From Minisyncoccia bacterium (GTDB lineage: Bacteria; Patescibacteriota; Minisyncoccia; Phycocordibacterales; UBA918), in NCBI GenBank assembly GCA_041738755.1, contig JBGSPE010000007.1, positions 13,079-77,078 on the forward strand: 64,000 nucleotides of DNA, written 5' to 3'. The notes under the pieces were generated by a model. It saw nothing but the letters and a program-made list of their open reading frames with translations, had not been told where the DNA came from and did not search any database. The translations under genes were made by a program, and so were the position numbers. Shown here in pieces: positions 46,744 through 52,953 of this stretch. The stretch's first letter is position 1. Each line of letters opens with the position of its first letter.

Positions 46744-47841
46744 TTACGCTTCGTTCGCTTCTTTGTATGACAGTGTCATCTTCTGATCGTTTGGTTCGAA
46801 GAGGGTAATCTTGAACTTGTAGACAGAACCGAGTGAGAGATTGCTCTTGAGCTTCTCTTCGGTTTCAAATTCTGATACGTGTACGAGACCAGCAACTCCT
46901 TCTTCGATTGAGGCCAAAGCACCATGCTTGTTGTACTTAATAACAACCGCATCAACCACCTGGTCCTTCTTGAACTTCTTAGACGCTGACACCCATGGGT
47001 TTTCCTTGAGTTGTTTGATTGAAAGAGAAATTTTGTCATCCTTCACTTCAATCACCTTGACTGATACCTGGTCACCAACGCTGAAGAGCGACTTCGTATC
47101 TTCAACAAGACCCCAGTCAATTTCTGAAATGTGTACCAACCCTTCAAGACCCGGTTCAAGCTTAACGAATACGCCAAAGTCCACCGCACCGGTGACTTCA
47201 CCAGCCACAATTGAACCAACTTCGTACTTGTTAACCTTTTCACCCTTCTCTTCTTTTTCTTGGAGGCTCTTTTCAGAGAAGATGAGTTTGTGTTCTTTCT
47301 GGTCTGCTGTAATCATCACGACTGAAAGATGCTTACCAATGAGGTCATTGAGGGCGGTGAGGATTTTATCCTTATCACCGTCTGAAACTCGTGGGTAATT
47401 TTCAGCAGAGAGTTGTGAAGCTGGGAGGAATCCTTGGATACCTTGCCATTCAATAATAAGTCCGCCCTTGTTAGCGTCTTTCACTTCAAGACTCATGACA
47501 TTACCTTTCTTCACTGCTTCTTCAGCATCAGCCCAGATGAGGGCTTGTCGCGCTTCTTTGAGTGAAAGTTCGATGTAGCCATCTTCATTTTCGGTACTCA
47601 CCACCTTTGAAGCGATGGTGTCGCCTGGAGATACTTTGCGGAGAATATCACGAGCATTCATGTATTCACGTCCATAGATAAGACCAGTACCGTATGGTGG
47701 TACATCGATGTATACGCGGGCTCGGCCCACAGCTGATACAGTTCCTTCAACAATTTGTCCATCTACCAATGGGGCAGGGGAATTATCGAGGTAGGTTTGC
47801 ATAATGCTCGGTTGTCCGGCAGTTGCAGTTACTTCTGACAT
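46744..47841 (-). CDS. rpsA: 30S ribosomal protein S1 (short form, 4 S1 domains)
   Basis: Repeated S1 OB-fold domains (…GTVSAVGRARVYIDV…, …GEVTGAVDFGVFVKL…); internal ATG MSEVTATAG chosen. Confidence 0.85.
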   Translation of the reverse strand: MSEVTATAGQPSIMQTYLDNSPAPLVDGQIVEGTVSAVGRARVYIDVPPYGTGLIYGREYMNARDILRKVSPGDTIASKVVSTENEDGYIELSLKEARQALIWADAEEAVKKGNVMSLEVKDANKGGLIIEWQGIQGFLPASQLSAENYPRVSDGDKDKILTALNDLIGKHLSVVMITADQKEHKLIFSEKSLQEKEEKGEKVNKYEVGSIVAGEVTGAVDFGVFVKLEPGLEGLVHISEIDWGLVEDTKSLFSVGDQVSVKVIEVKDDKISLSIKQLKENPWVSASKKFKKDQVVDAVVIKYNKHGALASIEEGVAGLVHVSEFETEEKLKSNLSLGSVYKFKITLFEPNDQKMTLSYKEANEA

Positions 47842-48059
47842 ATTATTATTTATGTATTTATTCCGACGACACGCGTCTGCACAACCTTGTCGCAAGGGTG
47901 GAAGAATCTCTGTGAGATTCTTCCACCCGGCCATAGTTCGTGAGTGCAGGGTTAAACGTGTGTCGCGAGAAACTATTAAACCTTTCGGTGCGTGCAATAT
48001 ACCAGAATACGATTATTTGTCTACTCTAATGATGGTCAAAATAAAAAGCCCTTAGGCAG

Positions 48060-49300
48060 AGGTGGTTGTACCTCTATCTAAGGGCCACGGCGTTTCTGCC
48101 GATTTTTATTCAACTCCATTCAGCTTCGCTGGTGATCAGGCGGATTGTTCACCATATCGCCCATTTGGTCTGGTACCAACTTTCCATAATCGATATCATT
48201 TACGTTGCGATACTTATTATCATCTGGTTCATTGGAAGCGTACATGTTGAGACCTTTCTAGAACTACGGCTCACTATGTTACGGTTTCAGTATAAAAAGT
48301 CAATAATATTAATAGAAAACGCCACCCAGAAATTGAGTGGACGTGTGGAATGTCTGAGGGGAGTCATTTGCAAACTGCTTTCAGCAAGGCTGACAAGTGT
48401 TTGACGTAATGAATCTCCCCTCATGACCGGGTGAATGCCGTTTCAGGTTCAATGTGTGTCACAGGCGGCAACCAGGACAGGCACCTTACTACTAGAGGCA
48501 AATCAAAGATTGATTTATTTTAAGAACGGATGTTTGGCGCCGTTCCCCCTGCGTACCTAACACTTTAATGGTTAGTTGGACAGAGGGCAAGTCTCTCGCA
48601 TTTTCATGTCGCGGGTTCTCCCGAAAAGTCGACGATTGTGGCGGTGGGCCGGTGTCAGGAATAGAGTTCCTGCCACCGGCCCTGATCCGTGGCGCGCGGT
48701 ATGTCTTTAGCCATGCAGGCAGATAGACATCCGGAGACGGGCGGGGCGCAGTTCGCCGCGACCAAGTGCCTAGGGATCAGCTGTCAAAACAACAGCCCTC
48801 ATAATGTAGCATATTATTGTAATAATGTCAAGCATTCCTGACAACAGAGAAAGCACGACAAGCAGTTTTGGTTTTAAGTATAGAAAGCCCCATCTTTCCG
48901 CTTGAAAGCGTAAAGATGGGGCGCTTGGAATAGGGTCTGTACCCTTGGTTCTGGATTTTCCCGAGAGATAAAATGGACGGTATTCCTCTCAACCCAGCTC
49001 AGCAGCATTGCTACTGAGAAAATGTACTGTACTTGGCCATGTTAGAACCTCCACGGGGTACTCTGCTTACGCAGAGACTTGTCGGCATCGCGTTGATCAG
49101 GTCAGGTCGGTCGCGGTCGTCGCAGCAACGAGCATGGCAGCACTGGCGTTCGTTGCCGGCCGGCTCGTCGAGGTCATGGAGCGATGGCTCATGATGATTC
49201 TCCTTCAGATGGACTTTGCTTGCAGCGGCTTCTCGTGTATATTCGATCCTCTCTGCAATTTCGATAGTACTAAAAATTTATTATGTTGCAAGTAGATTGT
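48060..49300. other. ~1.2 kb ORF-free region with locally elevated GC and numerous stable hairpins (candidate structured ncRNA(s) or degraded locus)
   Basis: No ORF of 60 aa or more has a recognisable product; hairpins at 48045-48090, 48636-48682 (gggccggtg…caccggccc with an inner caggaa/ttcctg stem), 48888-48925 (ccccatcttt…aaagatgggg nested), 49121-49158; tandem GGTCG repeats at about 49100. Confidence 0.5.
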
Positions 49301-49364
49301 GCACATCGACACAGCCCCCAAAACACTTCGTGTTTTGGGGGCTGTGTCGTATACTGTTGTCACT

Positions 49365-49985
49365 ATGATTATTACGTATCACGGCGGGCAGTGTTTTAAA
49401 GTATCTTTTGGAAACACTACCTTGGCCTTCAATCCAATTTCCAAAAAATCAAAGCTTGAAAGTACTAAATTTGGTTCAGATGTAGCACTGGTTTCAATGT
49501 GGCACCCAGATTTTAATGGGGTTGATCAGGTGGCGCACGGTAACAAACAACCGTTTGTGGTTGATGGTCCGGGTGAATATGAGATTGGCTCAGTGATTGC
49601 TCGTGGATTTGGCGTTAAAACTATTTACGACAAACAACCTATTTTTAACACTATCTACCAGGTGTGGCTCGAAGACATGAATATCGTCTTCCTTGGTGCC
49701 TTGGCCGATATTGAAATTGACCCAAAGATATTGAGTGAACTGGGTGACATCGATATATTGTTCGTTCCAATTGGTGGCGGGGAACTCTTAACTGTACCGC
49801 AAGCCAGTAAGTTGGCCGTTAAGCTTGAAGCTAAGTTGATTATCCCAATGCACTACACCCCGGATGCGTTGAAGCAGTTTCTGAAAGAAGAGGGGGAAGA
49901 AGGACTAAAGCCAGTTGATAAATTGGTACTCAAGCGAAAAGAAGTACAAGAGCTTAGTGGTTCAGTGGCAGTGTTAAGTAGCTAA
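49365..49985 (+). CDS. MBL-fold metallo-hydrolase (Lactamase_B_3 / UlaG-like)
   Basis: …DVALVSMWHPDFNG…ILFVPIGGGELLTV…IPMHYT pattern of the beta-lactamase_3 fold; internal ATG chosen. Confidence 0.55.
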   Translation: MIITYHGGQCFKVSFGNTTLAFNPISKKSKLESTKFGSDVALVSMWHPDFNGVDQVAHGNKQPFVVDGPGEYEIGSVIARGFGVKTIYDKQPIFNTIYQVWLEDMNIVFLGALADIEIDPKILSELGDIDILFVPIGGGELLTVPQASKLAVKLEAKLIIPMHYTPDALKQFLKEEGEEGLKPVDKLVLKRKEVQELSGSVAVLSS

Positions 49986-49989
49986 TTCT

Positions 49990-50421
49990 ATGAAGCTCCC
50001 AAAAATACAGACGTTGCGGCAGAAATCAAAGGCGGCTCGTAATAACATTGCCTTTGGTGTAGCTTGTACATTTACGGCCGTTGTATTCGCAGTCTGGATT
50101 TTGGTTGACCCGTCTGGAATCAGTGAGTCAGTAACGGCGGTTCCGACTGATCAGCCCCGGATGTTTGGCGGGCTGATTGACCAGATTAAAGAACAAGTAG
50201 CGGGTGCCCAGCAAGCATTTGAAACAGATGAGCAAGTTCCAGAAGAAACAACTCGTGAATCAGATGTAATCATCCCGCCGATTCCAACCGAGCCTGAATT
50301 CAGTACCGCTACAAACTCACAAGCGAGTACAACCGGAAGTACGACACCACGAGAAGTCCAATTGTTTATTGATACAAGTGCTACTACTACTCCGGCTGAT
50401 ACTTCAGGCAGGGTTCAGTAA
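49990..50421 (+). CDS. membrane-anchored hypothetical protein with a Thr/Ser-rich C-terminus
   Basis: N-terminal TM helix, then an acidic low-complexity extracellular region. Confidence 0.5.
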   Translation: MKLPKIQTLRQKSKAARNNIAFGVACTFTAVVFAVWILVDPSGISESVTAVPTDQPRMFGGLIDQIKEQVAGAQQAFETDEQVPEETTRESDVIIPPIPTEPEFSTATNSQASTTGSTTPREVQLFIDTSATTTPADTSGRVQ

Positions 50422-50460: not shown

Positions 50461-52953
50461 GTGCGTTATATGCCGAAAAAGTCACCTCAAGCAGCTCCAG
50501 AACCAATCGACCACATGCGTGGTGTCGTCTCACAAAGCATTACGGGCGAAATGGAAACCGCCTACCTAGACTACGCTATGTCGGTTATTACGATGCGTGC
50601 CTTGCCTGACGTACGTGATGGTTTAAAGCCAGTTCACCGACGAATCCTCTACTCAATGCGCCTTAATGGACTCACTGCTACCGCTAAATTCAAGAAATCG
50701 GCTACTGTCGTAGGAGACGTACTCGGTAACTTTCACCCGCACGGTGACTCGGCTGTCTATGAGTCAATGGTAAAGCTTGTCCAGCCGTTTTCCACACGAT
50801 ATCCACTGGTTATTGGACAAGGGAACTTCGGTTCGGTTGATGGCGACTCGGCTGCTGCGTATCGATATACCGAAGCTAAAATGTCTCGGATTGCTGAGGA
50901 GCTCCTTCGCGATTTGGAGAAAGATACGGTGGATTGGCGACCAAACTTTGATGGTACTAAGAAAGAACCAGTAGTGCTTCCAGCCGCAGTGCCAAACCTT
51001 CTTCTCCTTGGTTCGCTTGGAATTGCGGTTGGAATGGCCACAAATATTCCACCCCACAATCTCCGTGAAGTGTCTGAAGCCGTAGCGTATCTAATTGATA
51101 ATCCAGAAGCCTCAACTGACGACTTACTTAAATTTGTAAAAGGTCCTGACTTCCCAACGGGAGCGATTGCGTTTAATCAAAAAGATATTACGCACGCTTA
51201 CTCCAATGGTCGGGGAGGTGTGACGGTTCGTGGTGAAGCAGAAATTGTTGAAGATAAACGCGGCGCCTTCTCAATCATTATTACGTCAATTCCGTATCGA
51301 GTTAACAAGGCTGACTTACAAGAAAAGATTGCTAACTTGGTCCGTGAAAAGAAGATTGAAGGGATTCGAGAAATGCGCGATGAGTCTACTAGTGATATCC
51401 GGGTTGTGATTGAACTCAAGACCGGAGCGCAACCACAAACCGTTTTAAATAAATTATACAAACACACCCAGCTTGAGGATACCTTCCACTACAACATGGT
51501 GGCATTGGTGGATGGTGTGCCGCAAACCTTATCGCTCAAGGTGATTTTGCAAGAGTACGTGAAGCACCGAGCGGATGTAATCCGCCGTCGAACTCAATAC
51601 GACCTCAACAAAGCGCAGGACCGTGAACATATTTTGCTCGGCCTCAAGAAAGCGCTCGATCATATTGATAAAATCATTAAGCTTATTCGAGCTGCCAAAG
51701 ATGTTCCAACCGCCCACGCTTCGTTGATGAAAGAATTTAAATTCTCAGTCATCCAAGCGCAAGCAATCCTCGATATGCGGTTGCAGAAGCTCGCTGGTTT
51801 GGAACGCAAGAAGATTGAAGACGAGTTGGCGGAAATTCAAAAGTTAATTAAGGCTTTGGAAGCAATTTTGAAGAGCAAAGCCAAGATGATGGGAATCGTA
51901 AAGTCTGAACTCCTTGAGGTAGCAGAAAAATATGGTGATGAGAGACGAACTAAAATCGTAAAGGGTGGCGTCAAACAAATCAATCCCGAAGATCTTATTC
52001 CGGATGAGGAAAGCGTCTTGGTCTTAACAGCTGGTGGTTACGTAAAACGAACTAATCCAGAAGAATACAAAACCCAAAAGCGTGGCGGCGTGGGAGTGAT
52101 TGACCTTAATACCAAAGAAGAGGATGTGGTCACGACACTGCTTACAACCTCTTCCCACAGTGACTTACTCTTCTTTACCAATGCCGGTAAAGTCTACCAA
52201 TCAAAGATGTATGAAATCCCAGAAGGGAAACGTGCTACCAAGGGTAAGTCGATTATGAACTTCCTCTCAATGGGAAGTGAGGAGCGGGTTACCTCAGTCT
52301 TAGCGGTTCGTCGTGAAGAGTGGGATGGCGAGTGGGGACTCATCATGTTTACCAAAAATGGTGTAGCCAAGAAGAGCGACGCATCAGTTTTCAAAGATGT
52401 CAGACGGAGTGGTCTTATTGCCATCACCCTCAAGGATAATGATTCATTAATTGCCGCTCGATTTGTCGGTAAGGGTGATGAGTTGTCACTCGTGACAAGT
52501 AAGGGGCAATCAATTCGCTTCAAGGAAAGTGATGTTCGAGAAATGGGACGGACTGCTTCAGGTGTCGCTGCGATGAAGCTCGGTAAGGGCGATGAGATAG
52601 TTTCGGCAGATGTCTTCACCAAGGGTGTGAAGGACAGAGAACTTTTGATTGTGACTGAACATGGCTACGGTAAGGTTACGCCAGCTAAAGAATATAAATT
52701 GCAAAAACGAAGTGGGTCAGGTATTAAAACCGCCAAGGTAACTGACAAGACGGGACAAATAGTCTGTGGAATTGTCTTAAGTCAAGAAGAACATAAAGAA
52801 GGTGAGCTCGTCATTATGAGCAAGAAGGGACAGGTGATTAAGTTGCCACTCAAGGATGTCCCGACGCTCGGTAGAGACACGCAAGGAGTCCGTGTGATGA
52901 AGATGCGAGCGGGAGATGCGATAGCGAGCGTGGTATTTGTAAAGACTGAGTAG
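50461..52953 (+). CDS. gyrA: DNA gyrase subunit A
   Basis: [28 protein letters not shown] active-site region with Tyr, GyrA-box-like QKRGGVG in the C-terminal beta-pinwheel, 830 aa. Confidence 0.9.

Follow-up and report, generated by a model that had tools for sequence, protein, structure and literature searches.

Here, we describe the 1,523-nt gap (positions 47842-49364) between the genes for ribosomal protein S1 and a metallo-β-lactamase (MBL)-fold hydrolase in the 64-kb window, the whole stretch of DNA that was analyzed. The four-domain S1 gene (46744-47841, minus strand) is divergent from the MBL-fold (Lactamase_B_3) hydrolase gene, which starts at ATG 49365 on the plus strand; beyond the latter lie a gene of unknown function for a 143-aa protein, u143 (49990-50421), and gyrA, starting at 50461. 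The genes flanking the gap are those for S1, pth, a signal peptidase, MBL, the 143-aa protein and gyrA. A preliminary description of this DNA had flagged positions 48060-49300, which fall within the gap, as a coding-poor, hairpin-dense region of visibly higher GC content upstream of gyrA. The stretch is indeed coding-poor, with no open reading frame (ORF) longer than 112 aa between the S1 and MBL genes. GyrA is encoded downstream as described, but the immediate neighbor is the MBL gene and gyrA is two genes away; likewise, the GC content of the gap does exceed that of the window (0.48 versus about 0.45, with peaks of 0.54-0.55), but the rise is only modest. The window belongs to a genome of Patescibacteria (candidate phyla radiation, CPR), in the Paceibacteria/Kaiserbacteria-Nomurabacteria group. 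Patescibacteria have tiny, dense genomes whose regulatory RNAs and micro-proteins are almost uncharted, and 1.5 kb of noncoding DNA is therefore conspicuous. On balance, we lean toward the view that the flagged stretch is a lineage-specific filling of a hypervariable spacer, organized as three small, terminator-bounded units on the minus strand, which we term Units A, B and C.

The variability of this spacer is evident from a comparison of Paceibacteria loci: 80 from genomes and 80 from metagenomes, each surrounding an S1 homolog, and 18 more obtained through exact protein look-ups (about 180 syntenic loci, labeled L001 to L183). The order pth-S1-gap-MBL-u143-gyrA is constant in all genome loci, while the length of the gap forms a continuum between 202 and 2,394 nt. 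What the gap contains mostly shows no relationship from one species to another, with the exception of the S1 5' leader discussed below. In the closest relative (L081 and L083), the S1 protein is 97% identical to that of the window, yet the gap of about 980 nt is completely different; the similarity is confined to the S1 leader, the border next to MBL and a single 57-nt terminator/promoter piece. These two loci (L081:1-900, L083:1-640) have three mini-units of their own, each running from a promoter-like site to a terminator hairpin: one with a 61-codon ORF led by a Shine-Dalgarno (SD)-like site, one ORF-free unit of about 110 nt ending in a GAGGCCGGTCGAACA/TTCGACCGGCCTC hairpin, and one with a 30-codon acidic ORF. 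Neither the 61-aa nor the 30-aa ORF of L081 has any similarity to the window. Larger gaps elsewhere contain real accessory ORFs, including ORFs of 98 to 316 aa. A 326-aa deacetylase-like protein is encoded in the gap of L031 and membrane proteins in those of L007, L008, L017 and L075; an acidic ORF of 155-208 aa occurs in the gaps of L001, L004 and L006, with homology between L001 and L004 and no such match for L006. Across Paceibacteria, the S1-MBL junction looks like a hot spot for insertion or recombination. Five further close homologs of MBL or S1 were also examined, none of which led to another copy of Unit A, B or C, and a repeat search found no second copy of the gap sequence elsewhere in the 64-kb window. 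We also considered that metagenome contigs might break preferentially in the gap, and rejected this idea: 23 contig ends lie upstream of S1 and 22 downstream.

Terminators, together with the hairpins of the S1 leader and of the MBL-proximal border, account for the hairpin density that first drew attention to the stretch. The region had been described as containing long, perfect, nested hairpins; long hairpins do exist there, but they are imperfect, and the sequences and coordinates quoted for them were slightly off. They lie at 48646-48682 (16-bp arms, 94% complementary, no T tail), 48887-48922 (17-bp arms, 94% complementary, T tail on the minus strand) and 48048-48085 (16-bp arms, 88% complementary, T tail on the minus strand), and a terminator scan predicts a further T-tailed site on the minus strand at 48340-48322. 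Just outside the flagged span are two hairpins that are perfect, one in the S1 leader (47896-47928, 15-bp arms) and one proximal to MBL (49307-49349, 20-bp arms, no T tail). A G+C-rich stem-loop followed by a T run, as in an intrinsic terminator, is found at 48322-48340, 48048-48085 and 48887-48922; the hairpins at 48646-48682 and 49307-49349 lack the T run. Across the 64-kb window we count 36 long hairpins, for example directly after gyrA; in this genome, genes normally end in long intergenic terminator hairpins of this kind, which are often perfect. Both strands of a 496-nt piece of the region fold better than shuffled controls (z = -4.8 and -4.5). When sliding 150-nt segments are compared with their dinucleotide shuffles, the folding z-score is significant solely where hairpins sit, and the high score of the region as a whole is therefore attributable to five discrete long hairpins. 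Direction is also biased: mid-gap T-tailed hairpins across the relatives point toward S1 in 31 cases versus 6 in the opposite direction, and all five promoter-like matches of a promoter scan of the gap are on the minus strand. The minus-strand promoter-like sites and T-tailed hairpins together suggest that the gap splits into three units, all read in one direction.

Unit A (~49258 to 48880) would yield an mRNA, or an RNA of dual function, that encodes a 31-residue peptide and has a 3' region of about 200 nt. Its promoter-like site on the minus strand (TTGCAA at 49291-49286, 16 nt, TACTAT at 49269-49264) has 8 of 12 consensus matches, below the threshold of the consensus scan; the TTGCAA-N16/17-TACTAT arrangement is aligned in L003 and the -10 region in L001. 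The 31-codon ORF MSHRSMTSTSRPATNASAAMLVAATTATDLT (49097-49192, minus strand), whose peptide begins MSHRSMTSTSRP, is preceded by AAGGAGA at 49205-49199, and the unit includes the nucleotide stretch ATGACCTCGACGAGCC. Homologous ORFs lie in L001 (5352-5438, 28 aa) and L003 (4845-4952, 35 aa), and a family model of the unit matches these loci with E-values of 1e-139 and 5e-5, respectively. In all three genomes the purine-rich site (AAGGAGA, AAGGGAGA or GAGGAGA), the ATG and the stop codon are aligned, and the ORFs are separated by indels of 9, 9 and 12 nt. The first 36 nt are 89% identical between the window and L001, and the peptides of 31, 28 and 35 residues have in common the pattern M-S/N-x-R/H-...-STS-R/P-P. 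Among the small ORFs of the gap, this is the only one whose start, stop and frame are kept in homologs; the ORFs on the opposite, plus strand vary in start, stop and length (95, 45 and 77 aa). The 3' region (48923-49096, minus strand) contains small hairpins and is homologous in L001 and, more weakly, in L003, with compensated changes at a few pairs across the three sequences; its 9-codon ORF behind GGAGG (49040-49011, minus strand) recurs in L001 only. This region has a folding z-score of about 0, and 16 of 68 predicted pairs in Unit A show a double change, in three sequences, which are too few for statistics. The unit would end at a terminator (48876-48922, minus strand) made of the 17-bp hairpin at 48887-48922 and a T-rich tail; L001 and L003 keep the GCCCCA.../...TGGGGC base together with the T tail and have compensatory changes in the upper stem.

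Unit B (~48797 to 48315) would be a noncoding RNA of about 480 nt (48320-48797), with its 3' hairpin domain and terminator as the part under selection. Its predicted promoter (48803-48844, minus strand; 10 of 12 matches in the consensus scan) consists of TTGACA at 48831-48826, a 17-nt spacer and TACATT at 48808-48803, with TG before the -10 box. A homolog is present in L172/L173, loci that lack Unit A and whose MBL protein is 93% identical, and in L172 the promoter block TGCTTGACATT...GTATGCTAC is kept beside unalignable sequence. The GC-rich body of the unit (48446-48797, minus strand) contains the 16-bp hairpin 48646-48682, and on the minus strand the ORFs of Unit B do not exceed 36 aa. Its homology with L172 is patchy: the 5' half (48575-48797) is unalignable, 48446-48575 is conserved in short islands only, and the 146 nt at the 5' end show no folding excess over shuffled sequence (z = -0.35). 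The conserved 3' domain (48312-48445, minus strand) comprises a long hairpin (48352-48427) with an invariant base, GUCAUGAGGGGAG/CUCCCCUCAGAC, that is purine-rich on one side and pyrimidine-rich on the other; a linker, AUUCCACACGUCC; and a T-tailed terminator hairpin at 48319-48344. An AUG and the GAGGGGAG tract are sequestered in the Unit B stem. L172 matches the window exactly over a 25-mer, CATTCACCCGGTCATGAGGGGAGAT, and a 16-mer, GACTCCCCTCAGACAT; the unit also includes the stretch CACCCGGTCATGAGGGGAGAT. Folded independently, the two 3' domains adopt the same architecture, each at -48 kcal/mol (z = -4.6 and -7.2), and the hairpin apex and terminator differ by compensated changes, in two to three sequences, again too few for statistics. 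We considered a 45-codon ORF overlapping this domain as a conserved peptide and rejected it: indels of -2, +1 and +1 between the window and L172 shift its frame, and both substitutions in the conserved tail are non-synonymous, which argues for selection on the Unit B RNA and not on a peptide. Promoter block, 3' domain and terminator are all kept in L172/L173, with no ORF above 27 aa on that strand. The unit occurs in two lineages only, and its 5' half is not conserved; the tail and terminator alone are also present in L081-L083, where they lie 3' of the 61-codon ORF. The suggestion that the stretch holds one or more noncoding RNAs thus survives in reduced form, as an ORF-free candidate kept in one close relative, alongside the 31-aa micro-ORF kept in two other genomes.

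Unit C (~48270 to 48040) would be an orphan with a 41-codon ORF. Its promoter-like site (48276-48303, minus strand; TTGACT, 16 nt, TAACAT; 9 of 12 matches in the consensus scan) includes the block TTGACTTTT, which is part of the 57-nt piece that the window shares with L081/L083. The candidate coding sequence MYASNEPDDNKYRNVNDIDYGKLVPDQMGDMVNNPPDHQRS (48120-48245, minus strand) would encode an acidic peptide starting MYASNEPDD; at the matching position, L081 has its non-homologous 30-codon acidic ORF. The predicted terminator (48038-48085, minus strand) is the 16-bp hairpin 48048-48085 followed by TTTTTATTTT, with a z-score of about -5. The micro-ORFs of Units A and C had been singled out beforehand for their strong SD-like sites. 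Both ORFs exist (31 aa at 49097-49192 and 41 aa at 48120-48245, minus strand), but the SD-like sites are weak evidence: a strong SD-like 5-mer lies near a possible start in only 5 of the 49 ORFs of at least 150 aa in the window and before 3.5% of all ATGs, and S1, MBL, u143 and gyrA are all without one. Since SD-like sites are rare in this genome, they do not prove translation, and we rejected them as proof that the micro-ORFs are translated.

Several observations weigh against our division of the spacer into three transcribed units. The five promoter-like sites compare with 2.8 ± 1.6 expected, and both promoters and terminators in the gap are predictions from consensus or structure. Between the hairpins, the z-score of the sliding scan is about 0. 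Each unit has at most two to three homologs, so that covariation carries little statistical weight. The hairpin at 48646-48682 has no T tail and lies in the non-conserved half of Unit B, and Unit B could accordingly be two transcripts or end earlier than we have drawn it. In Unit A, the indels preserve frame on both strands, and an SD-like site such as that before the 31-codon ORF is unusual, not typical, for the genome. Finally, a search for the Unit C ORF across about 183 loci and 5.8 billion proteins gave no homolog.

The main rival to this reading is that the spacer is non-functional, decaying DNA, made of the remains of horizontally acquired or accessory genes that have been reduced to terminators, promoters and scraps, with small ORFs arising by chance. 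The site is hypervariable and houses intact accessory ORFs in other genomes, most of the window's filling is without a homolog in about 180 loci, its local GC departs from that of the genome, the sequence between hairpins folds like shuffled sequence, and SD-like sites are not the genome's norm; all of this would fit decay. Yet a decayed gene, one of the origins initially suggested for the stretch, left no protein remnant in six-frame searches. The six stop-masked frames gave nothing at E ≤ 1 against Pfam and only a 13-bit chance match against NCBIfam; a concatenated six-frame query against 5.8 billion protein clusters, in a search that requires shared 5-residue words, gave nothing at E ≤ 1; tblastn of 262 gap ORFs of relatives against the window found nothing outside Unit A and the S1 leader; and exact look-up of the small ORFs of the gap in the protein collection found them absent. 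We rate decay lower, as unlikely, because Unit B has a conserved promoter and two invariant blocks, of 25 and 16 nt, beside unalignable sequence; the start and stop of the Unit A ORF, aligned in three genomes, also speak against it. More doubtful is that the stretch encodes micro-proteins only (31 aa in Unit A, 41 aa in Unit C), in which case the RNA around them would be ordinary untranslated region and Unit B a defunct relative of these genes. The start, stop and purine-rich site of the Unit A ORF are kept in three genomes, and L081 has SD-led ORFs of 61 and 30 aa in equivalent units, the terminator of the 61-aa unit being homologous to that of Unit B. However, no homologs of the peptides are detectable, conservation is poor past about 12 residues, the Unit C ORF is confined to this genome, and the 3' domain of Unit B is conserved as RNA despite frame-shifting indels. 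Modules resembling type I toxin-antitoxin systems, in which the mRNA for a small toxic peptide carries a long stabilizing hairpin and is paired with an antisense RNA, would account for small ORFs, long hairpins, a patchy accessory distribution and free-standing units, as well as for the sequestered AUG and GAGGGGAG tract of Unit B. We consider such modules very improbable, as no peptide has a hydrophobic segment of transmembrane length, the promoter scan gave no plus-strand site for an antisense RNA, and the Unit B ORF is not frame-conserved.

Two further explanations raised in the preliminary description fare worse still. A single large structured noncoding RNA of the OLE/GOLLD/ROOL class extending over most of the 1.2 kb would be in keeping with the strong folding of the 496-nt piece and the GC-elevated, ORF-free sequence, but appears exceedingly improbable. 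Rfam 15 at gathering thresholds recovers only 9 tRNAs in the whole window; at E ≤ 10 with permissive filters, positions 47800-49450 give only sub-threshold noise from miRNA-type hairpins, and 11 relatives with long gaps give no match. The z-score signal arises from isolated hairpins with values of about 0 between them, internal promoter-like and terminator-like sites split the region, and its parts differ in distribution: Unit A occurs in L001 and L003, Unit B in L172 and Unit C nowhere else, and nearly all of the sequence is missing from the relative with a 97%-identical S1 protein. There is, then, no conservation of such an RNA across the ~180 syntenic loci. The absence of conservation or covariation in relatives, named at the outset as an argument against structured RNA, is indeed what we find for most of the region. 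The motif thought to recall helix 8 of signal recognition particle (SRP) RNA has no SRP match even at E ≤ 10 and is not conserved in the L001 homolog, and the GGTCG tandem repeats noted by eye are not reported by Tandem Repeats Finder. The absence of a transfer-messenger RNA (tmRNA) or group II intron, also judged by eye, is borne out: ARAGORN finds no tmRNA, and Rfam 15 gives no intron match. A replication origin, or an origin-like control region near gyrA, has only the proximity of gyrA and the long noncoding stretch in its favor, and its probability is negligible. No DnaA box (TTATCCACA-like, at most one mismatch) lies in 47842-49364, one-mismatch boxes in the 64-kb window number 16 versus 16.2 expected, cumulative GC skew climbs monotonically across the region and window with no turning point, and the gap shrinks to about 200 nt in relatives. 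We also rejected a mobile element (insertion sequence, miniature inverted-repeat transposable element, prophage or plasmid fragment), since the gap region has no long-range inverted repeats, no copies in the window and no blastn match to phage and plasmid collections. Six matches from a pattern scan of viral contigs were due to chance; they lay in contigs of 61-66% GC and did not extend, and later scans gave zero.

We therefore return to lineage-specific filling of a hypervariable spacer as the reading we favor. We propose that Units A, B and C would be independent transcription units on the minus strand, in the direction of S1, each running from a sigma-70-like promoter to a long-stem intrinsic terminator. 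The units would be accessory, being gained, lost and recombined among close lineages, with terminator/promoter junctions as common module borders. A bolder version, which we regard as doubtful, though a little less so than an account by micro-proteins alone, is that the S1/MBL junction of Paceibacteria is a dedicated exchange site, at which promoter-to-terminator mini-genes are swapped by recombination at terminator/promoter junctions, and that Unit B is a new regulatory RNA of about 480 nt with the invariant GAGGGGAG/CUCCCCUC hairpin as its functional core, in a genome that makes little other use of SD sequences. The stretch is not a missed housekeeping RNA but accessory, rapidly exchanged material at a fixed site, and it offers two narrowly conserved candidates: a small-ORF RNA (Unit A) and an ORF-free RNA (Unit B). 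For genome scans, the locus carries a lesson: long perfect hairpins in this lineage are ordinary terminators, and terminators alone can produce a high whole-region folding z-score.

The borders of the variable spacer are themselves structured. On the S1 side, outside the flagged span, a minus-strand element (47842-48039) comprises the S1 promoter (TAGACA-16-TATATT, 48023-47996) and a structured S1 5' leader (47842 to ~47990). With nhmmer, the leader gives about 110 matches among 165 loci (for example L081:764-937 and L010:3839-4007). In an alignment of 74 sequences, we recognize a conserved -10 box, TATATT; two long-range helices that are 98-99% paired, one an invariant pairing of GCGACACACG...CGCGTGTCGTCGG and the other a six-pair helix (CTGCGC/GCGCAG type) with many compensatory variants; an optional hairpin of variable length after GGCC, which in the window is 47896-47928; and an A-rich, SD-less spacer before the ATG. 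Cells with a double change number 165 versus 54 ± 7 in shuffles, and at most 56 when the partners are slid; simple column pairing detects no further helices. The leader has no Rfam match (E ≤ 10), and we found no description of it in the searchable literature. It is the only broadly conserved, strongly covarying RNA at the locus and a candidate for a new ribosomal-protein (S1) leader. Widespread in the clade, strongly covarying and without an Rfam match, it is the more valuable by-product of this analysis.

On the other side, the right border of the spacer (49307-49355, plus strand) is formed by the 20-bp perfect hairpin and a TATACT located 9 nt before the MBL ATG 49365. L083, L022, L091, L096, L014, L102 and L123 have a near-perfect hairpin of 17-20 bp in the matching place, with a different sequence in each. 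The distance to the MBL start codon is fixed at about 16 nt (positions 16-58 upstream), and the L083 copy is at ~585-625; the conserved TATACT follows the hairpin, with no SD sequence before the ATG. This arrangement could reflect a leaderless mRNA with a -35 element overlapping the hairpin, or an insulating terminator. The public record appears to start the MBL gene at GTG 49299 (228 aa; 49299-49985), a start from which translation would have to cross the 20-bp hairpin; ATG 49365 (206 aa) has the support of close relatives and of the Pfam match. Among the other neighbors, the S1 protein of the window is 87% identical to that of a Candidatus Paceibacterota metagenome-assembled genome. The 143-aa ORF at 49990-50421 matches no Pfam family and is fast-evolving while syntenically fixed, with 24-45% identity in relatives whose gyrA is 80-89% identical.

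How does this locus compare with known systems? To SRP RNA, tmRNA, RNase P RNA, 6S, OLE, ROOL, GOLLD, raiA, HEARO and group I/II introns in Rfam 15, the likeness is superficial, consisting of GC-rich hairpins and a CAGGTCAGGTC string; none of these families matches at E ≤ 10, and the SRP-like string is not kept in L001. In integron gene-cassette arrays, too, a fixed chromosomal site carries a series of small, interchangeable modules, each of which has a hairpin at its 3' end. In contrast to integrons, no integrase gene adjoins the site in the window or the compared loci, the gap hairpins are near-perfect with T tails and are not attC sites with extrahelical bases, and the gap modules have predicted promoters of their own. 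With intrinsic terminators the agreement is closer: 48048-48085, 48319-48344 and 48887-48922 have G+C-rich stems followed by minus-strand T runs, and the gap hairpins resemble those 3' of most genes in the window, although the gap stems are unusually long (15-20 bp) and those at 48646-48682 and 49307-49349 lack a T tail. Like free-standing bacterial small RNA genes, Unit B is ORF-free and has a narrow phylogenetic range, and its putative conserved sigma-70-like promoter and its stem-loop directly before a predicted T-tailed terminator fit the same pattern; at about 480 nt, however, it is long for a small RNA, and its 3' ~130 nt alone are conserved, in two lineages. SgrS-SgrT, RNAIII-hld and SR1-SR1P are dual-function small RNAs or small-ORF mRNAs. 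Unit A has no sequence relationship to them, but as predicted it would similarly join a conserved ORF of 28-35 codons to a longer untranslated stretch, also conserved, and end at a terminator of its own. Finally, E. coli rpsA has an autoregulatory, structured 5' leader without an SD sequence directly upstream of the S1 gene. The S1 leader of the window differs from it in having two covarying long-range helices and an optional variable hairpin, with no sequence or Rfam relationship between the two; yet it, too, is structured and SD-less, adjoins the S1 gene and has an A-rich stretch before the ATG.

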